Below are positions 2,962 to 37,707 of a DNA stretch of 64,000 nucleotides, piece by piece. The DNA is taken from positions 1,961,545 through 2,025,544 of the forward strand of contig OY282385.1 of assembly GCA_958295935.1 (NCBI GenBank), in the 5' to 3' direction. A model generated the notes under the pieces. The model saw only the letters and a list, made by a program, of their open reading frames with translations, did not search any database and was not told the DNA's origin. Position numbers and translations under genes: made by a program. This DNA is from an uncultured Dehalococcoidia bacterium. Its GTDB lineage: Bacteria > Chloroflexota > Dehalococcoidia > Lucifugimonadales > Lucifugimonadaceae. Positions within the stretch are counted from its first letter, which is position 1; each line of letters starts with the position of its first letter.

Positions 2962-4566
2962 TTACGCCGTTTCGACCATTCCCGGATCGGAGTCCGGGGC
3001 AAGTTTGCGCTGTTCCTCCTCTGCCCGCCTGATCCGCTGAGCGGCCTGATACGTGGAAGGATGGGCCGGTATCTCGAAGGTTCTGTCGTTAAGCAGTTCC
3101 TCTATGGTTCGGATCTGTATCTTGGGATAGTCCCGTTGCCACACTTCAGAGCGGTAGAAGCCGGCGCTGAGGGCCTCGGTTCGCATTTCGCGAGTAGGTT
3201 CCTCCAACGTGATGAAGAGGCCGAGCGCGGCTTTCTCGCGGTCGACGGCGCCCTTCAAATCCCTGATGAGGGGCGATGATACCCTGTCGCTCTTGACCTG
3301 TACGAGGCCCTTCCGACGCGGGCCGTCTATGAAGTGAATGACGCCGTCGATGCTCCTGTCGGCGCCGCGCTTGCGCTGCTCTCGCGGTAAAGCCTCCAGC
3401 AGAGACATTGCCCAGAACTGGAACTGGCAGCGGTCCTGATCGGCCAAGGCGCGGGCGCTACCGACGTCCACCGGCTCGCCGATGACTTGGTAGTCCTTTC
3501 CGGGAACGATGTCAAAGGCAGTCTTGAGCCGGTTCTTCACAAGGGCTACTGCCAGGTGGGTGACGTCGATGCCGATCCATCGTCGTCCGAGCTTCTCCGC
3601 AGCTGCCACGGCCGTACCGCAGCCACAGAAAGGATCCAATACCACGTCGTCATCGCTGGATGACGCCCGGATGATCCGTTCCAGAAGGGCCTGCGGCTTC
3701 TGTGTCGGGTATCCCAAACGTTCCTTCCCGATATGCATGGCATCCGGAATGTCTGACCAGGTGTCTCCGAGGAGAACATCCTCAACGACCCTCCCCGCGC
3801 TCTCTCTGAGAAAGTACTTGATTCGAATTGAGCCGGTTCTGGTCTGATGGACTCGACCCTCCGCATCAAGCCGTCTGATAGAGGCCTCCGTGTAGTCGCC
3901 TCTCGGGGCCGTCTTGAACCACCTGCCTTCATCATCCTGTCGCAGCCCCGCCTTTCGGGCCTCTTCGAACGTCAGCAGCCGCTCTAGATACTGTCTCCTG
4001 AAGGCGTGCTGGCCCGCCTCCTTCGAGTAGAACAACAGGACGTCGTGGTTGCGCGGGAATTGGTGTGCAATCGCCTTTGCGCCCCTGCCTCCGTAGTGCC
4101 ACACCAGCTCGTTCCGAAAGTTCGAGGCGCCGAACAAAGCATCCATCAGAAGCTTCAGGTAGTGACTCGCGGTGGGGTCGCAGTGCAAGTAGACGCTGCC
4201 GGCGGGTTTCATTACGCGGCGTAGTTCCACGAGGCGCGGGGTCATCATCACGAGGTAGGCCATCATGGCGTTGCTGCCTATGAACTGGCGGAAGGCGGAG
4301 ATCATGTCTTTGACGGCGGCGGGCGTCTCCGGGTTCGTGATGATCTCTTTTTCTAAGGTGCGCTCCGCTTCCTGCGTCCACTTCCAGGTATCGGTGAACG
4401 CCCTGATCTGGGCAGGAGACTCTTCACCCGATTGCTCCTCGAACAGAACGTTGTATGAAGCGTTTGAGTTGAACGGAGGGTCGAGGTAGACGAGGTCTAC
4501 CGACTCGTCGGGGACGTGCTCCCGGAGTATGGTTAGGTTGTCACCGTAGTAGAGTGCATTGTGCAT
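2962..4566 (-). CDS. Beta-class DNA methyltransferase (N6-adenine or N4-cytosine) with a C-terminal Mrr-like PD-(D/E)xK nuclease domain, 534 aa.
   Basis: Motif IV (VYLDPPFNSN) lies N-terminal and motif I (VLDPFCGCGTAVAAAEKLGRRWIGID) lies C-terminal of it. The C-terminal roughly 170 aa carry RSIDGVIHF...GLVQVKSD...ALGLFITLEEPT...KIQIRTIEELL, which resembles Mrr_cat (DGxIDG / QxK / KGxFITT). Confidence 0.75.
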   Translation of the reverse strand: MHNALYYGDNLTILREHVPDESVDLVYLDPPFNSNASYNVLFEEQSGEESPAQIRAFTDTWKWTQEAERTLEKEIITNPETPAAVKDMISAFRQFIGSNAMMAYLVMMTPRLVELRRVMKPAGSVYLHCDPTASHYLKLLMDALFGASNFRNELVWHYGGRGAKAIAHQFPRNHDVLLFYSKEAGQHAFRRQYLERLLTFEEARKAGLRQDDEGRWFKTAPRGDYTEASIRRLDAEGRVHQTRTGSIRIKYFLRESAGRVVEDVLLGDTWSDIPDAMHIGKERLGYPTQKPQALLERIIRASSSDDDVVLDPFCGCGTAVAAAEKLGRRWIGIDVTHLAVALVKNRLKTAFDIVPGKDYQVIGEPVDVGSARALADQDRCQFQFWAMSLLEALPREQRKRGADRSIDGVIHFIDGPRRKGLVQVKSDRVSSPLIRDLKGAVDREKAALGLFITLEEPTREMRTEALSAGFYRSEVWQRDYPKIQIRTIEELLNDRTFEIPAHPSTYQAAQRIRRAEEEQRKLAPDSDPGMVETA

Positions 4567-4694
4567 GGCGGATCGTCCTGGGTGAGTTTTACGCGACTAA
4601 ACGTTCACGGAACCTGGCATCTGATCCCACGTACGGCCATCCATATATTTCCAAGATTTGCTGTGGAGAAACCGGCCCCCTGGTCCGCCCTGCT

Positions 4695-5246
4695 CTAGGT
4701 ATCTAACCGTCCCGGCAACTTCATCCCCGTCCCGCGCGGCAGGTCCCAAGAGTCATCCTGCAGGCCGCGCAGGAAGTCGATCTGGCCGTGGTGGTTGTTC
4801 TTGTGAGTTATCTGGTGCCGCAACGCCTGCGCGACGGTCACGCCTGGCCGGAAAGTGTCCGCCGTATCGCCCAGCCGGTCTGGCTCCAGGGTGGACAGAT
4901 AGCCATCGGTTTGACGGTATGCGGCTTTCAGGTACCCGATCAGTGTGTCCAGGGGCGGAATCGCAAGAGCCTGCAGGCCCATCCTGTCGCCGGGATCGGG
5001 CATCTCGACAGGCTGCCGGAACCTCTCATACCAGCCTTCCGACTCCCACAGATCGGAACCGCCGCCGCGCAGACTTGCAATCATCCTGTCCTCTCCCCTG
5101 GCGACGTGCCAGAGGATGAACCCGATATTATTGGCGTGCGGCGCCGGCCTCCACACCACTTGCCCCTGCGTCAGTCCGTCGCACGTGCCAAGCAGCCGCA
5201 GTTGCACCTGATCGAGGCTGTCTCTGATGAACGTGAGAGTATCCAT
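4695..5246 (-). CDS. DinB/YfiT-family (DinB_2) putative metal-dependent hydrolase.
   Basis: The sequence ...ILWHVARGEDRMIASLRGG...ITHKNNHHGQIDFLRGL shows the four-helix DinB-like His motifs. Confidence 0.65.
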   Translation of the reverse strand: MDTLTFIRDSLDQVQLRLLGTCDGLTQGQVVWRPAPHANNIGFILWHVARGEDRMIASLRGGGSDLWESEGWYERFRQPVEMPDPGDRMGLQALAIPPLDTLIGYLKAAYRQTDGYLSTLEPDRLGDTADTFRPGVTVAQALRHQITHKNNHHGQIDFLRGLQDDSWDLPRGTGMKLPGRLDT

Positions 5247-27812: not shown

Positions 27813-28006
27813 AGACAGTACCTCCGGATGTTTGACCTGCCTGGATCATATAGGCGCCGGCAGCGCGGTGACGCAGCGGGAGTGGACGGGGTAGGCCGTT
27901 TGGTGGCGGGATGGTCGCCTTCGCAGCGTTTTCTGGCTTGCGGCGGAATGACGGGGGAAGAGGGCTGCTCGACTGCCTGGGCGCGCCCCGGTCGATTGTC
28001 GTCTGT

Positions 28007-28963
28007 TTAACGCCCCTCATATCGGCAGCAACACCCGGCAAACATCACCCTTCCTTTGTTCTGGGGGGCAGCCAGGGCCTCCGCGCTGCTTGAGTAAGGC
28101 CCGTGCCACCAGTTATCGGGAAGGGGATCTGGCTTGCGGTTCTTGTAGTAGCGGCAGTATCCCTTGTGAATCTTGGACATACCGGTTGGTAGGTCGGTGT
28201 AGACGTAGAATTCTTCGCGCGACGTGCTTGGCGCGGGTGGAACTGGCGGATCCTGTCGCGGGGGCCGAGGGGCAGGTTCGGTAAACCGCGTCGGCGGGCG
28301 CGTAGTCGTATCCCGTAGCGGGGGCGGAGGGTCGGGTAGAGGTGGCGGGGCTGTGTCGGTCACGTCCCAGTTGGCGTAGAAGTCTTCCAGGCGCAGGCCG
28401 AATCGTCTGATAGAGGAAGTCAGTTCGACTCTGAGCGATTCGTACATGTCCTCAAGCAACTTCCGGTTGCCCCGGATTTGCTGAGCGGTGTATTTATTGA
28501 GGTCCAAAGACAGAACCTTGCCCTGCAGCTCTCCCTTCAACCACTCCCCAACGTCGTGCACGGTCACCCTATCGTCCTTGTCCATAGGCCGGATTTGGCG
28601 CAGCCTCTCGCACTGCTCCTGTACCAGCGCCAGCGTGAGGACTACTTCACCCGTGACGGAGGCGCTATCGGAAGTGAGCGCGGGGAAGTCGAGCGGAATA
28701 CGTCCGCCGTGCCTGGAGGGGTCGTCGGGCTCTGGCAGCCAGAAGGCCAATTTGAAGGGGGCCTTCGTCGTCACGTAGGTTTTTATCTGCCCTTTTGGAA
28801 GGCGCCTCTGACCACCTGAAAAGATGTCCCATATCGCGCCGTCGCGTATGATTATCCCGACGTGATGCGGGTCGACTGTAAAAAACTTTCGGCAACACCA
28901 ATCCCGCCGGACGTTCTTATCGCCGGGCCGGAATATCGTCTCGCTATCGCTCTCCCTGTTCAA
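28007..28963 (-). CDS. SPFH-like N-terminal domain, Pro-rich linker and C-terminal Ada-like Zn-ribbon module; paralogue 1 of 3.
   Basis: The N-terminal roughly 190 aa align with the N-domain of the 30786-33215 protein (PHHVGIIIRDG / PHELVVVIRDG; ...IRGNRKLLEDMYESLRVELTSSIRRFGLRLEDFYANWDVTD / ...LRGNEALLRSIYDSLRVELAATLSGYGFRLDNFFINWGLTD). The C-terminus is ...EEFYVYTDLPTGMSKIHKGYCRYYKNRKPDPLPDNWWHGPYSSSAEALAAPQNKGRVMFAGCCCRY. Confidence 0.5.
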   Translation of the reverse strand: MNRESDSETIFRPGDKNVRRDWCCRKFFTVDPHHVGIIIRDGAIWDIFSGGQRRLPKGQIKTYVTTKAPFKLAFWLPEPDDPSRHGGRIPLDFPALTSDSASVTGEVVLTLALVQEQCERLRQIRPMDKDDRVTVHDVGEWLKGELQGKVLSLDLNKYTAQQIRGNRKLLEDMYESLRVELTSSIRRFGLRLEDFYANWDVTDTAPPPLPDPPPPLRDTTTRPPTRFTEPAPRPPRQDPPVPPAPSTSREEFYVYTDLPTGMSKIHKGYCRYYKNRKPDPLPDNWWHGPYSSSAEALAAPQNKGRVMFAGCCCRYEGR

Positions 28964-29055
28964 GTTAGATTCCTTATCTCTGGGTAGGTGCAGTGGGATG
29001 TGGAGAACCGCTGGACGCGCCCCGGCCGATTGTGGTCTGTTCAGCTCCCATTACG

Positions 29056-29829
29056 TCAGCGACAGCGCTCGGCAAACGTCACCCTTCCTCTGTTCTGGGT
29101 GGCATCCCAGGCCTTCGCCTCGGCCTCCGCCTCACTTGAGTAAGGCCCGTGCCACCAGTTATCAGGAAGAGGATCTGGCTTACGGTTTTCGTAGTGGTAG
29201 CAGGGTCCCTTGTGAATCTTGGAGTTTGAACCGTCGGTGTAGACGTAGAATTTCTCTCGCGATGGGCTTGGCGCGGATGGAACTGGTGGATCCTGTTGCG
29301 GGGGCCGGGAGGCAGGCTCGGTAAACCGCGTCAGCGGACGCGTAGTCGTATCCCGTAGCGGGGGCGGGGAAGAGAGCCGGTCCCTGATTCTTTCTACCGC
29401 CTGCTTACTGTCGGATTCGTTGATGCGTCCGAGCAGGTCCGCGATGACGGTCACGCGGCTCCTGACATCCTCTATGTCCAGGTCGCTCTGTGAAGGATGC
29501 GCCGCTTTGTTCCGCGCATCGCGGATCATCCACAACATGTTCTTGACTATTTCGTCGTTCCAGAACTCCTGGCTGAAAATGTCGTTCCAGTACCCGTCTA
29601 CCAGTTTCGGAAAGTCGTTTATGTCGATAGATTCCTCAGCGCTGCCAGTGCGGCGGAGGTCATCTGAGAAATACTTGCCCCGACCACCTAGTTTGCCCTT
29701 TATAGCCTCCTCGATGTTCTTGCCTTTTACACGATTCAGGCATCGGACGATGAAAGGACGCATAGCGTAGCGGAATATGTCAAGCGCATCGTGGAGCGCT
29801 TGTTTGTTTGGATAAAGAGATTCTGTCAT
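29056..29829 (-). CDS. Swt1-type HEPN domain, Pro-rich linker and Ada-like Zn-ribbon module; paralogue 2 of 3.
   Basis: The ATG at 29827-29829 follows AGGAGCCAAAAAA. The HEPN motif is ...MIRDARNKAAHPSQSDLDIEDVRSRVTVIADLLGRI (Rx4H). The C-terminus is ...KFYVYTDGSNSKIHKGPCYHYENRKPDPLPDNWWHGPYSSEAEA...RVTFAERCR. The track ORF extends upstream to 29997 only because the frame stays open. Confidence 0.55.
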   Translation of the reverse strand: MTESLYPNKQALHDALDIFRYAMRPFIVRCLNRVKGKNIEEAIKGKLGGRGKYFSDDLRRTGSAEESIDINDFPKLVDGYWNDIFSQEFWNDEIVKNMLWMIRDARNKAAHPSQSDLDIEDVRSRVTVIADLLGRINESDSKQAVERIRDRLSSPPPLRDTTTRPLTRFTEPASRPPQQDPPVPSAPSPSREKFYVYTDGSNSKIHKGPCYHYENRKPDPLPDNWWHGPYSSEAEAEAKAWDATQNRGRVTFAERCR

Positions 29830-29977
29830 TTTTTTGGCTCCTACCTGATTGAGAGACTCGAATGGCGTTTGGACTGAATAAATTTTGGTCAGGGCAGTGC
29901 CGGGGCAAGGGGGAGTGGGACGTGGAGAACTGCTGAGCGCGCCCCGGTCGATTGTGGTCTGTTCCGCGCCCATTACG

Positions 29978-30682
29978 TCAGCGACAGCACCCGGCAAACA
30001 CCACCCTTCCTCTGTTCTGGGAGGCAGCCCGGGCCCCCGCCTCGCTTGAGTAAGGCCCGTGCCACCAGTTATCAGGAAGGGGGTTTGGCTTGCGGTTCTT
30101 GTAATAGCGGCAGGATGCCTTGTGAATCTTGGACATCCCGGTTGGTAGGTCGGTGTAGACGTGGAATCCCTCGCGCGACGTGCTTGGCGCGGGTGAAACT
30201 GGCGGATCCTGTCGCGGGGAAGAAAGCCGGTCCCTGATTCTTTCTACCGCCTGCTTACTGTCGGGTTCTTTGATGCGTCCGAGCAGGTTGGCGATGTCGG
30301 TCACGCGGCTCCTGACATCCTCTCTATCCAGGTCTTTCTGTGGAGGATGCGCCGCTTCGTTCCGCGCATCGACGATCGTCCGCAACGTGTTCTTGACCTT
30401 TCTCTCGCCCCTGAACTCCTGGCGGAAAATGTCGGTCCAGTACTCGTTTATAAGATCTGGAAAGTAGTTTATGTCGATAGATTCCTCGACGCTGCCAGTG
30501 CGGTAGAGGTTATTGGAGAATTCCCTGCTCCGAGCACCTTTAAGTTTTTCCTTTATAGCCTCCTCGGCGCTCTTGCCTTCGACACGATTCAGGCATCGGA
30601 CGATGAAGCGACGCATATCGTAGCGGAATATGTCAAACGCATCGTTGAGCGCTTGCTTGTTTGGGTAATAGTATTCTGTCAT
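29978..30682 (-). CDS. Swt1-type HEPN domain, Pro-rich linker and Ada-like Zn-ribbon module; paralogue 3 of 3.
   Basis: The ATG at 30680-30682 follows an identical duplicated 5' leader/RBS. It reads MTEYYYPNKQALNDAFDIFRYDMRRFIVRCLNRV...IVDARNEAAHPPQKDLDREDVRSRVTDIANLLGRI...KIHKASCRYYKNRKPNPLPDNWWHGPYSSEAGARAASQNRGRVVFAGCCR. Confidence 0.55.
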   Translation of the reverse strand: MTEYYYPNKQALNDAFDIFRYDMRRFIVRCLNRVEGKSAEEAIKEKLKGARSREFSNNLYRTGSVEESIDINYFPDLINEYWTDIFRQEFRGERKVKNTLRTIVDARNEAAHPPQKDLDREDVRSRVTDIANLLGRIKEPDSKQAVERIRDRLSSPRQDPPVSPAPSTSREGFHVYTDLPTGMSKIHKASCRYYKNRKPNPLPDNWWHGPYSSEAGARAASQNRGRVVFAGCCR

Positions 30683-30785
30683 TTTTTTGGCTCCTACCTG
30701 ATTGAGAGACTCGAATGGCGTTTGGACTGAATAAATTTTGGTCGGGGGTAGCACCGGGACACAGGGGGTGAATGGATGGCTGTTT

Positions 30786-33215
30786 TCACTGGAGCACGGT
30801 GGCTACCGCGGGGGAGGATAATACGTCTCCGCCCGTTTTGTAGCTCCATAGGAGCTTGCCTGAGGATTGGTCCAGCGCGTAGAGGTGATCGTCGTCCGAT
30901 CCTATGAACACGGTGCCGCGGTTCACCGCTGCGCTGGATCTCACGTCCCCCCGCGTCCGGTAGCGCCATAGCAGTTCACCTGTGACGGCGTCCAGCGCGT
31001 AGAGGTGGTCGTCGGTCGATCCGGCGTACACGACACCGTCGATCACCGACGGCCGATTCACGCTATCGCCTGTCTCGTATCGCCAACTCAGATCGCTCGT
31101 GCCGGCGTCCAGCGCGTAGAGGTGGTCGTCGCCAGATCCGGCGTACACGACTCCGTCGGCCACTGCGGGCGACGAGAAGCTGACGTAGTAGTCGCTGCTA
31201 CGGTATCTCCATAACGTGTCTCCAGTCGCCGCGTCTAGTGTGGACAGGTACCTGTCAGCCCTGTTTGCGCGCGCGGCGTACACGACTCCGTCGGCCACTG
31301 CGGGCGACGAGGAGAAGGAGCCGAGGAAGATGCCGCCGGGGCGGTATCGCCACAACAGGTCTCCGGTCGCCGCGTCAAGCGAGTAGAGGTAATCGTCGTT
31401 CGATACTATGAACACGACTCCGTCGGCCACCGCGGGTGAGGAGTGGACGTTGTCGCCGGTCTCGTATCGCCATAGCAGGTCTCCGGTCGCCGCATTGAGC
31501 GCGTAGAGATGGTCATCGGCTGATCCGGCGTACACGACTCCGTCGGCCAGCGCGGGCGAGGAGTGGACGTCGCCGCCGGTGCGGTATCGCCATAGCAGGT
31601 CTCCGGTCGCCGCGTCGAGCGCGTAGAGGTTGTTGTCGTACGACCCTACGTAGATGACGCCGTTGGCCGCTGCGGGCGAGGAATGCACCTCGCCGCCGGT
31701 CCGGTAACTCCAGCTCAGCTCGCCCGTTTCCGCGTCCAGCGCGTACAGGTACTTGTCGCCTGAGCCCACGTAAACGAGATCGCGCTCTGTGGGTACATGC
31801 GGCGTAGCAGTCGCAGTTGGAGTGAAAGTCGGGGTGGGTGAGGCAGTTGGCGTAGGCGTAGGAGTGGAAGTCGGCGTTGCGGTGGGTGGCGCGGTGGTCG
31901 GGGTCGGCGCGGCTGTTGGCGCAGGCGTTGGAATCGAAGTCGGGATTGGATTGGGCGGCGCGTTGGTCGCGGCCGTTGGCGCTGGAACGGCGGTTGGCAC
32001 TGGGCGCGTGGGAGTTGGAACCGAAGTCGGTGTTTGAGTGGGCGGCGCGTTGATCGCGCCCGTTGGTGTTGGAACAGTCGTTGGCGCTGCGCGCGCGGGA
32101 GTTGGAACCGAAGTCGGTGTTTGAGTGGGCGGCGCGTTGATCGCGCCCGTTGGTGTTGGAACAGTCGTTGGCGCTGCGCGCGCGGGAGTTGGAACCGAAG
32201 TCGGTGTTTGAGTGGACGGAGCGTTGGTCGCGGCTGTTGGGAGTGGAACAGTCGTCGGGGAGGGTGTCGGGGTATGGGCCGGCGTCGAGGGTATGACTAC
32301 GGGAGCGGGCGTGTTCGTGGGGATCTGCGCTGCGGCCTGATTTTGGGGTTCACTAATCGCGAGTCTGTCGTTTAGCCAGATCCCGAGGAAGATGCCGCCG
32401 GCCAGGAGAAGGAGGGCAAGTACCGCGAAGGCGGTGACTGCCGGGCTTCTGAAGCCTCGCCAGCCTCCCTTTCGTTGGGATTCCGCGCTGCGGTCTGCAC
32501 CGGATAGAGCGTCGAGTTCCCTTTTTCTCTGTTCCGCGCGCAGACGGGCCTGGTGACGCTGATCCTCGATGGAAGTGCGTTCGGCATCGGTCAGGCCCCA
32601 ATTGATGAAGAAGTTGTCGAGCCGGAAGCCGTAGCCCGACAGCGTGGCTGCGAGTTCGACCCTGAGCGAGTCGTATATCGAGCGCAGCAGGGCCTCGTTG
32701 CCGCGCAGTTCCGCGGCGGTGTGCTTGCTGAGTTCGTGTGCGACGACCTTGGCCAGCAGTTCGTCCTTGAGGTATTCGGCGACGTCCGCCACGCCTATGG
32801 CATCCCGTCCGCGCATGAAGGCGGGCAGCCGGTCGGCGTCCTCCAGGGTGACGGCGAGCCTGAGATTCACCTGCGCGGCTATGAGCTGTCCGTCGGCAGT
32901 GAGAGCGGGGATGCCCTGCGTATCCAGTTCGGACGGGCTGTCAGGGTCCTCGAGCCAGAAGGAGACGGTGAACGGAGAGGTGTCGGCCTGGAGCGCGCGC
33001 GTGCTGGGGCCGCTGCCGAGGAGCGCGCGCAGGAAGTCGCCGAGGCTTCTGGTGCTGCGCTTGCCCTCGGTGAAGATCTCGACGATCTTGCCGTCGCGGA
33101 TGACTACGACCAGCTCATGGGGTTCGGCGATGACGTTGCGCCCGAACCCGCGTAGATCCTTGCGGCCCAGGTAGGCCGCAACGGTATCTACTCCGAATCT
33201 CCGCCAGGAGGTCAT
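30786..33215 (-). CDS. Membrane protein with an N-terminal SPFH (band-7)-like domain, coiled coil, one TM helix, Pro/Thr repeat linker and a C-terminal PQQ-type (BamB-like) beta-propeller.
   Basis: The SPFH-like region reads ...ELRGNEALLRSIYDSLRVELAATLSGYGFRLDNFFINWGLTDAERTSIEDQRHQARLRAEQRKRE. The TM helix is AVTAFAVLALLLLAGGIFLGIWL. About 8 repeats follow of the type YLYALDAATGDLLWRYRTGGDVHSSPA. The ATG at 33213-33215 overlaps the upstream stop (TGAaATG); the track start 33236 is the alternative. Confidence 0.6.
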   Translation of the reverse strand: MTSWRRFGVDTVAAYLGRKDLRGFGRNVIAEPHELVVVIRDGKIVEIFTEGKRSTRSLGDFLRALLGSGPSTRALQADTSPFTVSFWLEDPDSPSELDTQGIPALTADGQLIAAQVNLRLAVTLEDADRLPAFMRGRDAIGVADVAEYLKDELLAKVVAHELSKHTAAELRGNEALLRSIYDSLRVELAATLSGYGFRLDNFFINWGLTDAERTSIEDQRHQARLRAEQRKRELDALSGADRSAESQRKGGWRGFRSPAVTAFAVLALLLLAGGIFLGIWLNDRLAISEPQNQAAAQIPTNTPAPVVIPSTPAHTPTPSPTTVPLPTAATNAPSTQTPTSVPTPARAAPTTVPTPTGAINAPPTQTPTSVPTPARAAPTTVPTPTGAINAPPTQTPTSVPTPTRPVPTAVPAPTAATNAPPNPIPTSIPTPAPTAAPTPTTAPPTATPTSTPTPTPTASPTPTFTPTATATPHVPTERDLVYVGSGDKYLYALDAETGELSWSYRTGGEVHSSPAAANGVIYVGSYDNNLYALDAATGDLLWRYRTGGDVHSSPALADGVVYAGSADDHLYALNAATGDLLWRYETGDNVHSSPAVADGVVFIVSNDDYLYSLDAATGDLLWRYRPGGIFLGSFSSSPAVADGVVYAARANRADRYLSTLDAATGDTLWRYRSSDYYVSFSSPAVADGVVYAGSGDDHLYALDAGTSDLSWRYETGDSVNRPSVIDGVVYAGSTDDHLYALDAVTGELLWRYRTRGDVRSSAAVNRGTVFIGSDDDHLYALDQSSGKLLWSYKTGGDVLSSPAVATVLQ
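32007..32270 (-). repeat. Perfect 90-bp tandem repeat (2 copies plus a degenerate third) within the Pro/Thr linker coding region of the SPFH-propeller gene.
   Basis: Positions 32007-32096 are identical to 32097-32186 (ggagttggaaccgaagtcggtgtttgagtgggcggcgcgttgatcgcgcccgttggtgttggaacagtcgttggcgctgcgcgcgcg). Each copy encodes PTQTPTSVPTPARAAPTTVPTPTGAINAP. Confidence 0.6.
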
Positions 33216-33216
33216 T

Positions 33217-33759
33217 TCAGCCTTGGGCCTTCTCACGCGCTGCCCGCTCGATGTCTCCCAGCGCGTTGTCGTAACCGGCTCCCCGGTAGAACTGCGTTTC
33301 CGAAGGGTCCCTGTCGAATATGCTGATGACCGTTTCGAGCTTGTTGTCCGACCCCTTGACCTTGACGGCTACCTCTTCCATCTGGCTTTCCAGCGCGGCC
33401 GCATCCATCTCATTGATGAGCTTCCAGATGCCGCGCTTCTGGAGATCCTTCTTCATGTTGATGATGTTGATGGTCTCGTCCAGAACCGATATCTGCGTAA
33501 TCACGCGCTGGATGTTGTCCTCCGCCCTGTCCTTGCGCTTTCGGGCTTCGCTCATCCTGTAAGCGGCGACCTGCCGCTCTGCGGAGTTCTTGCCCGGCTC
33601 CGAGGCTATGTCCAGGCGGCGGTCGTACTCCTCCTGCGCACGCCTGATGGTTAACAGCAGCCTGTCCTGCCTGACCTCCTGTCGCGTGCGCTCCTTGCGC
33701 AGGTCGTCGATCTTCAGGTCCTCGAGCTTCTTTGCCGTGCCAAATCCAAATAGTGCCAT
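33217..33759 (-). CDS. ESCRT-III / PspA (IM30) superfamily-like coiled-coil protein, 180 aa.
   Basis: It starts MALFGFGTAKKLEDLKIDDLRKERTRQEVRQ (ESCRT-III proteins begin M-x-LFG-(K/R)) and is predicted all-helical, with ...NIQRVITQISVLDETINIINMKKDLQKRG...MDAAALESQMEEV. It is translationally coupled to both neighbours. The family assignment is tentative. Confidence 0.45.
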   Translation of the reverse strand: MALFGFGTAKKLEDLKIDDLRKERTRQEVRQDRLLLTIRRAQEEYDRRLDIASEPGKNSAERQVAAYRMSEARKRKDRAEDNIQRVITQISVLDETINIINMKKDLQKRGIWKLINEMDAAALESQMEEVAVKVKGSDNKLETVISIFDRDPSETQFYRGAGYDNALGDIERAAREKAQG

Positions 33760-33760
33760 G

Positions 33761-34234
33761 TCATCTCCTTCTTCTTCTGATTACCTTGACGCTCTCGCCG
33801 TCATGGTCTTTCACGTTGGAAACGCTGATCTTCTTCTCCTGTCGGAGCTGCTCGACGACTTCATCGACGACGTTCTCCGGGAACTGCCCGACGAACTGAT
33901 CTATGACGAACACCTTGCGGCTGTCGTCGAGCAGCGCTGTCTCAATCTCGCGGCGGCAGGCGTCCAGCAGTTTTTGTCGCCTCTGGTACTCGGTGTCCTG
34001 CGGCTCCGCGGGCGGGACGAGGGGCTCTCTGCCGCGGGACACGTCCGGGCCGTGGTGCTGCCTCTCCAGCCATGCGTCTATCTCCGAGCGGCGGAAGCGC
34101 CACGTGGACCCGAGCTTGAACACGGGGATCTTCCCGGACTGCGCCCAGTCGTAGATGGTGCGCTCGGACATGTTGAGGTACCTGGCCACTTCCGGTATGG
34201 ACATGAGCGCCGGGGCGCTGTCGCTGCCGTTCAT
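33761..34234 (-). CDS. Excisionase-family (MerR-like HTH_17) DNA-binding protein with a C-terminal extension; the first gene of the operon.
   Basis: It contains MSIPEVARYLNMSERTIYDWAQSGKIPVFKLGSTWRFRRSEIDAWLE. GGAG lies 5 nt upstream of ATG 34234. Confidence 0.6.
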   Translation of the reverse strand: MNGSDSAPALMSIPEVARYLNMSERTIYDWAQSGKIPVFKLGSTWRFRRSEIDAWLERQHHGPDVSRGREPLVPPAEPQDTEYQRRQKLLDACRREIETALLDDSRKVFVIDQFVGQFPENVVDEVVEQLRQEKKISVSNVKDHDGESVKVIRRRRR

Positions 34235-34481: not shown

Positions 34482-34790
34482 GATCTACGAAATTCGCAAA
34501 GGCTGCGAACGGGAGTAGTAGACTCCAGCACGGAACAGAGAGAGCCGGGGCAGGTGTGAGCCCGGTTTCACGGCTGGGGAGGAATGGACCCGCGAGCCGC
34601 AGGACGAACGTCGCTCTCAAGTTGGGAACGGCGAGTAGTCTGAGCCGGATTGGCCCCCGTTAGCAAGGCCCGGAGAACGTCCGCCGCAATCGGGCGGGAT
34701 CCGCACAAGAGATGTCCCGGCGCGCCGGGACAATCAGGGTGGCACCGCGGGAATGACCTCGCCCCTGCACAAGGGAGCGAGGTTTTTTTA
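34482..34790 (+). promoter_or_regulatory. T-box riboswitch leader with a Trp (UGG) specifier and an intrinsic terminator, controlling trpS.
   Basis: The T-box motif AAUCAGGGUGGCACCGCGG lies at 34732-34750. The terminator hairpin cctcgcccctgcacaagggagcgagg plus UUUUUUU lies at 34757-34789. Stem I has an AGAGA bulge (about 34540), and the specifier loop reads ggaAUGGAccc (UGG at 34585-34587, followed by a purine). Confidence 0.7.
34757..34790 (+). terminator. Rho-independent terminator of the T-box leader (the conditional attenuator).
   Basis: A GC-rich hairpin is followed by a 7-T run. Confidence 0.6.
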
Positions 34791-34897
34791 TTTGTCCATG
34801 GTGGGCGAAGAGATCGAGGCAACGGCCGCATCGCCTCACCCGCCTGGGCGCGCATAGTTCCCATCTCACGAAACGCAGCAATCAAACCGAGACGACC

Positions 34898-35956
34898 ATG
34901 ACGGCTAACAGCCCTGCCAACACACCGCCAAAAAGTAGACCAACGTCTGGCCGGCCGCGCATACTCACCGGCATCCGCCCCACCGGCGCGCTTCATCTTG
35001 GGCACTACGTCGGCGCGCTCAAGAACTGGGTGCGCCTGCAAGACGAATATGAGTGCTACTTCCTGATCGCCGACTACCAGGCTCTTGGAGACCACTTCCA
35101 TGAAATCGACCTGATCAGGGAATCGGTCATAGAAGTCACTCTCGACTTCCTGGCCGTGGGGCTGGATCCGGAGAAATCGACCTTCGTCGTCCAGAGCTAC
35201 GTACCGGAGCACGCCGAACTGGCTATGCTCCTGAGCTTCATCACGCAATTGGGTATGCTCGAACGCAATCCCACACTCAAGGCCGAACTCGATAGCCTGC
35301 CCGTGACCCACCGCACGGTGGGGTTCTACAACTACCCCATGAGCCAGGTGGCGGACATACTGTTGCCGCGGGCCCACCTGGTACCCGTGGGAGAGGATCA
35401 GGCTCCGCACGTCGAGATGACCAGGGAGGTGGCGCGCAAGTTCAATCGTATGTTCGGCGAGGTATTCCCGGAGCCGCAGACCCTCGTCGGCGAGGTGGGT
35501 CGGTTGGTGGGAACGGACGGCGCCGGAAAGATGAGCAAGAGCAGCGGAAACGTCATCATGCTTTCCGACGGCGAGGCGGACGTGAACGAGAAGGTGCGCA
35601 GTATGTTCACCGATCCCAGGAGAGTACGCGCCGATATTCCGGGTAGAGTCGAAGGCAACCCCTTGTTCGAGTACCACGATGCCTTCAACCCTGACACTGG
35701 CCAGGTTGACGAGTTCAAGGAGCGCTACAGGGCTGGAAAGGTGGGTGACGTAGAGGTCAAGAAAGCGCTGGCCCTGGCTATCAACCGTTTTCTCGACCCG
35801 ATCAGGGAACGCAGGGAGTACTACGAGCAGCGCCCCGGGCTGGTCGAGGATGCGATCATCTCCGGCGCAGAGCGGGCGAGCGCCATAGCCTCCGAGACCA
35901 TGATCATGGTGCGAGACGCCATGCGCATATCGTCATACACCTCGACGCGTCGATGA
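34898..35956 (+). CDS. trpS: Tryptophan--tRNA ligase.
   Basis: It has HLGH ([13 protein letters not shown]) and KMSKS class I aaRS motifs. Confidence 0.85.
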
Positions 35957-36195: not shown

Positions 36196-37707
36196 GTGTA
36201 CTACAAGCCAGACATAGAAACGTTCAGGTCTCTTGCCAGAGAGGCGAATCTGATACCCGTTTACCAGGAGATCACCGCTGACCTGGAGACCCCGGTTTCG
36301 GCATACCTGAAGACCGCCCGGGGGCCCTATTCCTGGTTGCTCGAATCGGTCGAGGGCGGCGAGAACGTGGCTCGATACAGTTTCATGGGCACTGAGCCAT
36401 CGGAAGTCCTCATATCCGGGCCGGGCGAGCGAGATGGAGAAGTCGACCCTCTCGAACTGCTTCAGTCGCGCACGTCCGGGGTGAAGTACGCCGCGGTGCC
36501 GGGCCTCCCTTATTTTCACGGCGGCGCAGTTGGCTACGTGGGCTATGAGGCGATCAGATATTTTGAGCCCAAGGTGCCGCCGCTGCCCATGCCGGGCGTC
36601 GGCGTACCCGAGGCGGTTTTCATGCTGACCGACTCGTTGCTCATATTCGACCACGTTCGCCACACCATCGCGGTGGTGGGACACGCCCGTGTAGACGGAG
36701 ACCCGGACGCCGCCTACCAGAGAGCCACCCAGCGCATCCAGGACATGGTCGGACGTCTGGAGGCGCCACTGCCGGCACAGGCATACAGGCTCGCCCCGGC
36801 AAGAACCGGCGTGACCTCCGATGCCGGCCTGGATTACTCGCACAACCAAGATGCCAACGCGGGCCTGCCGACCAGTTCCAATATGAGCCGCGCAGACTAT
36901 GAGACGATGATCGAGGTCGCCCGCCGGGGGATCTACGACGGCGAGTTGATCCAGGTGGTGTTATCTCAACGGCTCTCACGCCCTACCGGCGCGGCCCCGT
37001 TCGACGTCTACAGGTCGCTCAGGGGAGTGAACCCGTCCCCATATATGTTCTATCTGGACCTTGGAGGGTTTCAGGTCGCAGGCGCCTCGCCGGAGTTGCT
37101 GGTGCAGATGATAGACGGCGACGTAGCCGTTCATCCCATAGCAGGCACGAGACCCAGAGGGGACACCCCGCAAGAGGATGAAGCGCTGGCCCGCGAACTG
37201 GCCCAAGACGAGAAAGAACGGGCGGAACACGTGATGCTGCTGGACCTGGGCCGCAACGACGTGGGCAGGGTTTCGGTTCCCGGAACAGTGAAAGTCACCC
37301 AGCAACTCGACCTGGAACGCTACTCACACGTGATGCACCTCGTTTCGCACGTTACAGGCAAGCTGCGGGATGAGTACGATGCCTACGACGCCCTGCGAGC
37401 AGGTTTTCCGGCAGGCACGGTTTCCGGAGCGCCCAAGGTGCGCGCCATGGAGATGATCGCCGAGTTGGAGCGTGACAAGCGCGGCCTATACTCCGGCGCA
37501 GTCGGATACTTCAGCTATACCGGCAACATGGACACCGCTATCTGCATCCGATCCATCGTGCTCAAGGACGGCGTGGCGCACATGCAAGCAGGCGGCGGCG
37601 TTGTCGCCGATTCCACGCCCAGCGGAGAATACCAGGAGTCACTGATCAAGATCGGCGCCCTGATGCGCGCCATCGACCACGCCGAGGACGTCGCCGGTGC
37701 CTCTTGA
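36196..37707 (+). CDS. trpE: Anthranilate synthase component I.
   Basis: A GTG start follows AAGGGA. It carries TrpE chorismate-binding motifs (...LESVEGGE...VLSQRLS...GAVGYFSYTGNMDTAICIRS). Confidence 0.85.
   Translation: MYYKPDIETFRSLAREANLIPVYQEITADLETPVSAYLKTARGPYSWLLESVEGGENVARYSFMGTEPSEVLISGPGERDGEVDPLELLQSRTSGVKYAAVPGLPYFHGGAVGYVGYEAIRYFEPKVPPLPMPGVGVPEAVFMLTDSLLIFDHVRHTIAVVGHARVDGDPDAAYQRATQRIQDMVGRLEAPLPAQAYRLAPARTGVTSDAGLDYSHNQDANAGLPTSSNMSRADYETMIEVARRGIYDGELIQVVLSQRLSRPTGAAPFDVYRSLRGVNPSPYMFYLDLGGFQVAGASPELLVQMIDGDVAVHPIAGTRPRGDTPQEDEALARELAQDEKERAEHVMLLDLGRNDVGRVSVPGTVKVTQQLDLERYSHVMHLVSHVTGKLRDEYDAYDALRAGFPAGTVSGAPKVRAMEMIAELERDKRGLYSGAVGYFSYTGNMDTAICIRSIVLKDGVAHMQAGGGVVADSTPSGEYQESLIKIGALMRAIDHAEDVAGAS

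Follow-up and report, generated by a model that had tools for sequence, protein, structure and literature searches.

Three adjacent genes, A, B and C, lie on the minus strand of a 64,000-nucleotide stretch (the window) of contig OY282385.1 from an uncultured Dehalococcoidia bacterium (assembly GCA_958295935.1, positions 1,961,545 to 2,025,544), and join different N-terminal domains to a common C-terminal end made up of a Pro-rich linker and a module of about 65 residues. The module is a member of an uncatalogued, unannotated domain family, and modelling predicts it to be a genuine, independently folding α/β domain. In a conserved operon, HTH_17–p180–SPFH-PQQ, the three genes occupy the variable 3′ end. 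As a tentative explanation, which we favour, the module may act as an adaptor or docking handle that couples HEPN ribonucleases and a soluble SPFH protein to a sub-membrane complex of SPFH and ESCRT-III-like proteins. The genes and their parts are arranged as follows.

28007-28963, minus strand: gene A, 318 residues, SPFH domain, Pro-rich linker and C-terminal module.
~28355-28879, minus strand: SPFH domain of A.
~28217-28354, minus strand: Pro-rich linker of A.
28010-28216, minus strand: module of A.
29056-29829, minus strand: gene B, 257 residues from the ATG at 29829, Swt1-like HEPN domain and module.
~29365-29829, minus strand: HEPN domain of B, with the motif RNKAAH.
~29257-29364, minus strand: long Pro-rich linker of B.
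29059-29256, minus strand: module of B.
29978-30682, minus strand: gene C, 234 residues, Swt1-like HEPN domain and module.
~30218-30682, minus strand: HEPN domain of C, with the motif RNEAAH, followed by a short linker.
29981-30172, minus strand: module of C.

The N-terminal domains of B and C match HEPN_Swt1 (PF18731) with E-values of 1.5e-10 (41.8 bits) and 3.4e-10 (40.6 bits), respectively, at a Pfam gathering cut-off of 27.5, and the Rx4H catalytic motif is intact in both, as RNKAAH at residue 106 of B and RNEAAH at residue 107 of C. Gene A matches Band_7/SPFH (PF01145) under the cut-off of 23.6 (E 0.0017, 18.9 bits), and over its 190 N-terminal residues it shares 38% identity with the SPFH domain of D, the 816-residue protein encoded upstream (E 7e-37). 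These matches bear out the original prediction, which was made by reading the window's letters and open reading frames, in its assignment of two HEPN N-termini and one SPFH-like N-terminus; the constant C-terminal module and Pro-rich linker that it described are likewise present in A, B and C. The module hidden Markov model matches the three proteins with E-values of 2e-27 (A), 1e-20 (B) and 6e-27 (C), and their common C-terminus follows the Pro-rich linker with the pattern [FL].VYTD...SKIHK..C.Y..NRKP.PLP.NWWHGPYSS.A.A.A..QN.GRV.FA..C. A 313-residue open reading frame at gene B is a mechanical upstream extension of the 257-residue gene. No transmembrane segment or signal peptide was found in A, B or C, and none of them matches NCBIfam. 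The gaps between the genes, of 92 and 148 nt, are devoid of open reading frames, and the genes that come next are module-bearing genes or a peptidase gene.

At the DNA level the linker, the module of ~65 residues and about 60 nt of 3′ flank are 81-90% identical among the three genes. A and C share a direct repeat of 287 nt at 89% identity (27977-28263 and 29933-30219), comprising the module and about 30 nt past the stop codon; A and B share a linker repeat of 135 nt at 90% (28193-28327 and 29233-29367); and a module core of 107 nt is 85-90% identical among all three copies. Because the repeats span the globular module and the 3′ flank, the similarity is not merely one of low-complexity Pro-rich sequence, the alternative named in the original prediction. 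The HEPN-coding DNA of B and C aligns in two blocks, one of 300 nt (87% identity) and one of 205 nt (91%). The trio therefore consists of a duplicated HEPN gene and a different SPFH gene that has only the linker, the module and the 3′ flank in common with it: the three consecutive genes with a common tail are real, but the proposed tandem triplication of one gene is not. The similarity is a mosaic, in which the linker of B is closest to that of A, the HEPN part of B to that of C, and the module of C to that of A. Such a pattern implies, on alignment, repeated recombination among the three genes, in keeping with the domain shuffling that had been proposed for them. The G+C content falls to 55-57% across both HEPN genes (window positions 29000-31000), compared with 60-65% in the flanks.

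Two further elements recur in the non-coding DNA around these genes.

29830-29890, minus strand: 5′ leader and ribosome-binding site of B, within a 71-nt identical run.
30683-30743, minus strand: 5′ leader and ribosome-binding site of C, an identical copy of the B leader.
27982-28007, minus strand: 3′ element, copy 1, one mismatch, overlapping the stop codon of A.
29016-29041, minus strand: 3′ element, copy 2, one mismatch, 14 nt past the stop codon of B.
29938-29963, minus strand: 3′ element, copy 3, exact, 14 nt past the stop codon of C.

The run at 29820-29890 equals that at 30673-30743 over 71 nt, at an offset of 853; the identity of leader and ribosome-binding site had been recognized correctly, with the second coordinate placed two positions off. 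Upstream of the start codon, B, C and the C orthologue of a closely related strain (locus L001) have one and the same leader of ~60 nt, beside coding DNA that is 87% identical. Identity across two paralogues and across strains points to a regulatory or translation-initiation element under constraint, beyond any recent conversion. The 26-nt 3′ element, predicted to recur after each stop codon, is confirmed in three copies with at most one mismatch, and occurs nowhere else in the window when four mismatches are allowed. A structured RNA or terminator was considered for the 3′ element and the leader and rejected, as shuffled sequence folds at least as well (z +0.4 to +1.7). Terminators and promoters are not in excess in the cassette, no promoter consensus was found at the leader, and an Rfam scan of the cassette gave no match.

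Comparison with L001 shows how unevenly the block diverges. Its housekeeping flanks are 98.2-98.5% identical to those of the window, gene A is 96.4% and the 3′ end of gene D 95.1% identical, and gene C only 86.7%. The L001 middle gene, the orthologue of B, encodes 89 residues: a clean deletion has removed the HEPN part and joined the first 16 residues directly to the linker and module. The gene after it encodes an 83-residue protein with two transmembrane segments, which has no Pfam match and no counterpart in the window (L001 1964-2704). Ratios of non-synonymous to synonymous substitution (dN/dS), calculated by the Nei-Gojobori method, are 0.91 for the HEPN domain between window C and L001 C, 1.02 between B and C, and 1.36 between B and L001 C. 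They are 0.46 for the linker and module of C, 0.22 for the linker and module of A, 0.20 for the SPFH part of A and 0.20 for the S9 peptidase; for the middle-copy module they reach 0.8-0.9 in three of the four comparisons with the L001 middle copy. Between the strains, the HEPN part has a dS of 0.19, five times the 0.038 calculated for the peptidase. The HEPN parts evolve fast relative to the module and the SPFH domain.

A profile search of the 65-residue module, envisaged in the original prediction, was made with exhaustive HMMER against 1.84 billion cluster representatives (E<=1e-3), and recovered a family of 100 representatives and no catalogued domain. The family consensus is [FY].VY.D..T...RIHxxxC..Y.NRK....DN.WHGP[YF]..xxeA......CxxCxP. 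Stand-alone proteins of 60-110 residues account for 62 of the representatives, 6 have the module two or three times in tandem, and in 30 it forms the C-terminus of a fusion, the partners being HEPN_Swt1 (9), PIN_12/PIN_4 (3), SPFH, TIR, ankyrin repeats and DUF4268. The combination of H-x3-C with C-x2-C is found in 85 of 109 domain instances, and that of H-x3-C with an adjacent CC in 12, including window A and C, which end in GCC. Seven instances have a single terminal Cys, B (ending in AERCR) among them; four of these seven, B included, keep H-x3-C. The family-wide H-x3-C ... C-x2-C pattern probably binds metal.

The module has no match in Pfam, NCBIfam or PADLOC. A word-indexed protein search found one relative with the module alone and two with a 90-sequence profile; the family came to light only in the exhaustive HMMER search. 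PDB sequence searches with both module profiles returned nothing meaningful. The AlphaFold2 model of the A module, computed from the 90-sequence alignment, has a predicted local distance difference test score of 90.8 and a predicted template-modelling score of 0.80, with strands at positions 5-10, 15-20, 37-43 and 58-61 and two short helices. A degenerate DNA pattern for NWWHGPY gave 37 matches in species-representative genomes, about the number expected by chance; 5 are true family members, all of them in Dehalococcoidia metagenome-assembled genomes, and in this genome set such members were found only there. Weak partial matches over the GP[FY]..eA...CxxCxP end link 12 of the 100 members to DUF6233, 3 to DUF4170 and 2 to DUF1816. 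The best DUF6233 match has an E-value of 4.5e-7, and one that was inspected individually is partial, with 16.0 bits at a cut-off of 27.6; among the individually scanned members, only P0024 passes a Pfam cut-off, for DUF4170 (27.1 bits, cut-off 25). These three families differ from the module in that the matches are mostly sub-cut-off and cover just part of the domain, and the window modules match none of them. A phage- or plasmid-borne origin of the module was rejected: there was no plasmid match, and the sole phage match is antisense to a dUTPase gene and spurious. Viral contigs gave no match to the module motif or to p180, a protein of the operon described below.

The original prediction had likened the module to the N-terminal metal-binding fold of Ada. 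Ada_Zn_binding (PF02805) does not match the three proteins or their isolated modules even at E<=10, nor any of the 100 family members, and a Foldseek search of the module model against the PDB gave nothing at E<1. In an hhalign comparison of the 90-sequence module alignment with a 63-sequence Ada_Zn_binding alignment, the probability is 25% (P 7.6e-4), and the confident stretch comprises only the last 25 columns, GP[YF].s.eA...C..C.P. When the alignment is relaxed, H, C, C and C of the family come into register with Ada Cys38, Cys42, Cys69 and Cys72, and GP[YF].s.eA of the module pairs with F.a.eA of Ada. The position aligned with the nucleophilic, methyl-accepting Cys38 is a near-invariant His, so that Ada-type repair chemistry is excluded for the family. 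Compared with the N-terminal zinc domain of E. coli Ada (PF02805; PDB 1eyf, 1u8b), to which no sequence, profile or fold score is significant, the module has His in place of the methyl-accepting Cys as its first ligand, as well as an extra strand and an insert of 7-10 residues ahead of CxxC, and the window copies, A and C with GCC and B with one Cys, are without the CxxC pair. What is left of the predicted likeness is a weak profile similarity with ligands in register; there is no Pfam, PDB or Foldseek match, and in the window copies the last ligand pair is degenerate. We regard it as a suggestive resemblance and not as demonstrated homology.

Upstream of C, the operon contains three further genes.

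30786-33236, minus strand: gene D, cytoplasmic SPFH domain, one transmembrane helix (~261-290), Pro/Thr-rich repeat linker and extracellular PQQ β-propeller.
33217-33759, minus strand: p180, conserved 180-residue helical-hairpin protein.
33761-34234, minus strand: HTH_17 gene, the first of the operon, excisionase-type DNA-binding protein with a conserved C-terminal domain (HTH_17 match 5e-20).

Protein D matches PQQ_2 (8e-91) and Band_7 (2.3e-7, 31.5 bits, cut-off 23.6), and has orthologues in loci L005 and L043. The structure of p180 was predicted from its single sequence, and the protein possibly belongs to the ESCRT-III/PspA superfamily; it has no detectable sequence similarity to PspA and Snf7. 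A sequence relationship to E. coli PspA or human CHMP3 was dismissed as not significant. The HTH_17 protein scores 76.3 bits against antiphage_MADS1 of NCBIfam (cut-off 80) and 3.5e-10 against mad1 of PADLOC; both matches cover only the 49-residue excisionase-type helix-turn-helix, and its C-terminal 90 residues, conserved across the operons, match nothing.

The window order is HTH, p180, SPFH-PQQ, two HEPN genes with the module and the SPFH gene with the module. In L005, HTH_17, p180 and SPFH-PQQ are followed by an SPFH+DUF8426+module gene; L043 has HTH_17, p180, HEPN_Swt1+module and SPFH-PQQ; L003 has a partial HTH gene, p180 and SPFH+module; and in L004 an inserted UPF0175/DUF3368 pair stands between HTH_17-p180 and SPFH+module. 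Across these loci p180 is 54-59% identical and more conserved than the SPFH domain (33-40%). A metagenome scan with p180 yielded 12 more distant loci, where p180 is 43-50% identical in the ten with a near-full-length match and SPFH lies downstream in all four with enough sequence. HTH_17 is directly upstream of p180 wherever the contig extends, that is in 4 close loci (one of them with a partial copy) and 9 of the 12 distant ones. The HTH, p180 and SPFH genes are adjacent in the window, L003, L005, L043, L053, L054 and L056; the p180 and SPFH genes of L004 and L051 are separated by one or two others. At the distant loci, the SPFH domain and a Ser/Thr kinase are either fused or encoded side by side (L051 1760-8970; L053 2917-5955). 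SPFH is there combined with an OpuAC solute-binding domain, or is followed by a 1539-residue LRR/Kelch/LamG protein and a PD-(D/E)XK nuclease. This variety suggests that SPFH-based transmembrane sensors form a family in which the extracellular receptors are interchangeable. No nucleoside triphosphatase (NTPase), such as STAND, MoxR-vWA or GAP1, is encoded in the operon in the window, L003, L004, L005 or L043. Housekeeping genes border the block in the window, with a probable Trp T-box and TrpS on one side and an S9 peptidase on the other.

In a neighbour-joining tree and an identity table, the modules cluster by lineage and not by N-terminal partner; this is observed directly, as are the domain identities, the conservation of the operon and the fast evolution of the HEPN parts. 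The A, B and C modules of the window and L001 form one clade, in which the modules of window A and C are 81% identical at the protein level. The modules of P0008 (HEPN) and P0012 (SPFH), which come from one sample, are 83% identical, and those of P0006 (HEPN) and of P0011 and P0013 (both SPFH) ~65%; identity between lineages is 34-54%. Three independent lineage clusters thus mix SPFH-borne and HEPN-borne modules, whereas the N-terminal domains are orthologous across lineages. Lineage-internal likeness of the copies on core and adjacent effectors is also the property by which the effector-associated domains (EADs) of NTP-dependent conflict systems are defined (PMC7159879). Like the module, EADs (Kaur, Burroughs, Iyer and Aravind 2020, PMC7159879) are small non-enzymatic domains, one copy of which belongs to the core and others to the effectors of adjacent genes; within a lineage, the copies are more alike than orthologous copies elsewhere. 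In the window, the SPFH+module gene adjoins two HEPN+module genes. Their cores, by contrast, are STAND, MoxR-vWA or GTPase proteins, in place of which SPFH and an ESCRT-III-like protein are found here, and most EADs are all-helical, whereas the module is α/β with a His/Cys pattern. The module also differs in being present as a single copy at some loci (L043, L003 and L004), and its likeness to EAD1-10 is one of described behaviour.

A second comparison is with the experimentally studied PspA-YdjGHI (SamGHI) membrane-stress system of B. subtilis (PMC11237479, PMC8581546, bioRxiv 10.64898/2026.02.06.704340). There, an ESCRT-III homologue is connected with membrane proteins through a soluble SPFH protein that needs membrane partners; this protein is reported to end in a zinc ribbon, which a low-complexity stretch precedes (PMC11237479, PMC8581546). 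The window operon would resemble it in placing a candidate ESCRT-III-superfamily gene, p180, beside a soluble SPFH gene, and resembles it in encoding SPFH and a membrane anchor together, D being an SPFH protein with a transmembrane helix and A a soluble one. It differs in that p180 lacks detectable PspA similarity, the membrane partner is an SPFH protein with a PQQ propeller and the regulator is HTH_17; the Bacillus operon is not known to include HEPN effectors. The zinc ribbon of YdjI is of the classical CPxCG type and is not known to be related to the module.

An adaptor function is favoured because the same domain occurs on the core and on adjacent effectors, its copies co-vary within each lineage, and the effectors diversify fast; the promiscuous fusion of the module to HEPN, PIN, SPFH, TIR, ankyrin and DUF4268 partners counts in the same direction, as do its predicted independent fold, the conserved operon and the experimental precedent in B. 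subtilis. We infer docking, an activation step and a role in defence or stress as follows. The module would be an EAD-like protein-protein docking handle, and contacts between modules, or with one common site on the SPFH/ESCRT-III-like assembly, would recruit the soluble SPFH protein and the HEPN ribonucleases. The complex may sense perturbation of the envelope or membrane, for example during phage attack, which would release or activate the HEPN ribonucleases and stop growth. The earlier suggestion that the module serves as a common handle survives in this form, as a proposed adaptor.

Several observations weigh against this proposal. Neither the module nor HEPN is present in the 12 distant HTH-p180-SPFH loci, and the core is therefore HTH, p180 and SPFH with a variable extracellular domain; the module-bearing genes are a lineage-specific add-on and the module an accessory to this core. 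Most family members are stand-alone small proteins or lie outside such operons. The L043 operon has one module-bearing gene, and L003 and L004 have SPFH+module only, so a model in which a core copy is strictly bridged to an effector copy cannot apply at every locus. The clustering of modules by lineage could stem from gene conversion or recent shuffling without function, and A, B and C match no defence system in PADLOC.

Other explanations account for parts of the same evidence. The module might be an Ada-type zinc domain that binds nucleic acid and provides a DNA or RNA handle for each N-terminal domain. The H-x3-C ... C-x2-C-x-P pattern of 85 of the 109 instances, the relaxed alignment of its ligands with Cys38/42/69/72 and the frequency of nucleases (HEPN and PIN) among the partners would fit such a role, which we nevertheless consider unlikely: the Cys38 position is His, the CxxC pair has been lost from the window copies, fusions to SPFH, ankyrin and TIR are left unexplained by nucleic-acid binding, and genome-wise clustering is not expected of a generic nucleic-acid binder. 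A neutral history is also conceivable, in which a HEPN gene, having acquired its 3′ end from the neighbouring SPFH gene, was recently duplicated and its copies are decaying, the module contributing only to folding or oligomerization. It would accommodate the HEPN dN/dS of ~1, the ratios of 0.8-0.9 that the middle-copy module shows against its L001 counterpart in three of four cases, the Cys ligand lost from B and the loss of the whole HEPN part from its L001 orthologue. It sits less easily with the intact open reading frames and RNxxAH motifs of B and C, with a ~60-nt leader that is 100% conserved in both paralogues and across strains, with the constraint on the linker and module (dN/dS 0.46 in C and 0.22 in A), and with independent HEPN+module fusions in other lineages and in the same operon; we judge it distinctly improbable.

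The original prediction itself likened the locus to polymorphic effector cassettes. On this reading it would be an array like those of Rhs/CDI-type polymorphic toxins, with the constant 3′ region and flanking DNA as recombination substrates for swapping N-terminal 'warheads'. Such arrays also comprise tandem genes with one constant and one differing region that are rearranged between strains, and here 3′ homology (linker, module and ~60 nt of flank) is repeated in three genes, similarity is mosaic (B linker with A, B HEPN with C, C module with A) and strain structure differs, the L001 middle gene lacking HEPN and an extra gene encoding the 83-residue transmembrane protein. The polarity is reversed, however: the constant part is C-terminal, the opposite of polymorphic toxins. 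No secretion apparatus, secretion or trafficking domain, signal peptide, immunity gene or truncated orphan cassette accompanies A, B and C, which are complete genes, each with its own leader, ribosome-binding site and start codon. One 'warhead' would be SPFH, a scaffold in place of a toxin; both fusions, SPFH+module and HEPN+module, are found as stable architectures across distant lineages and within a conserved operon; and the locus was not found on phages, plasmids or viral contigs. We therefore set this likeness aside as very improbable.

A broader version of the adaptor proposal is correspondingly more doubtful. In it, an undescribed His/Cys adaptor family, the 'WHGPY' domain, would plug interchangeable, fast-diversifying effectors (HEPN here; PIN and TIR elsewhere) into an unrecognized ESCRT-III-like/SPFH surveillance machine with a variable extracellular receptor, and would couple the sensing of envelope damage or phage to RNA-degrading growth arrest. 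As part of the same doubtful claim, the machine of these Dehalococcoidia-like bacteria would consist of an ESCRT-III-like filament, an SPFH ring and a receptor, which is the PQQ propeller in the window and, in relatives, OpuAC or LRR/Kelch with a Ser/Thr kinase. If true, a bacterial immune or stress pathway would be organized on ESCRT-III and SPFH instead of an NTPase. If the module is the coupling adaptor, the logic of conflict systems would gain a new fold and a new kind of core, made up of SPFH, an ESCRT-III-like protein and an extracellular receptor, and membrane surveillance would be linked in a testable way to ribonuclease effectors in Chloroflexota/Dehalococcoidia. To our knowledge, almost nothing is known about immunity or envelope stress in these bacteria. 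Whatever its function, the ~100 sequence clusters of a well-folded module, as predicted, that carry no annotation could be described as a new domain family.

Locus L005 contains, in addition to its operon copy, a divergent 76-residue stand-alone module (3935-4162, minus strand), 2 kb upstream of the HTH-p180-SPFH operon and adjoining a gene with a SocA_Panacea domain (4346-4999); a large serine recombinase is encoded 2 kb downstream of the operon. Homogenization with the operon copy was ruled out for this stand-alone module 6 kb upstream, the two being 24% identical. In L002 (708-3509) and L035 (3-2067) a module-bearing gene, HEPN+module in one and a short stand-alone module in the other, adjoins a large gene for an α/β-hydrolase-type peptidase, which in L002, where the domain scan was made, is Peptidase_S15/PepX_C. 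The window cassette abuts the S9 peptidase; the peptidase neighbourhood may be a coincidence.

On the other side of the block, the T-box leader (34496-34769, plus strand) matches Rfam RF00230 with 76.8 bits and an E-value of 9e-16, under the gathering score of 93. Genes for a class-I Trp/Tyr tRNA synthetase (34898-35956) and anthranilate synthase (36196-37707) lie downstream, which makes a Trp T-box probable. A 369-residue minus-strand open reading frame (34568-35677) overlaps the T-box and the synthetase gene, has no Pfam match and is probably spurious. Within gene D, an 87-nt tandem repeat (31919-32255; 3.9 copies, 89% identity) encodes 29-residue Pro/Thr-rich units of the extracellular linker. 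A second repeat of 69 nt occupies 31828-31969, and the blades of the PQQ propeller are also visible as repeats of 117-120 nt.

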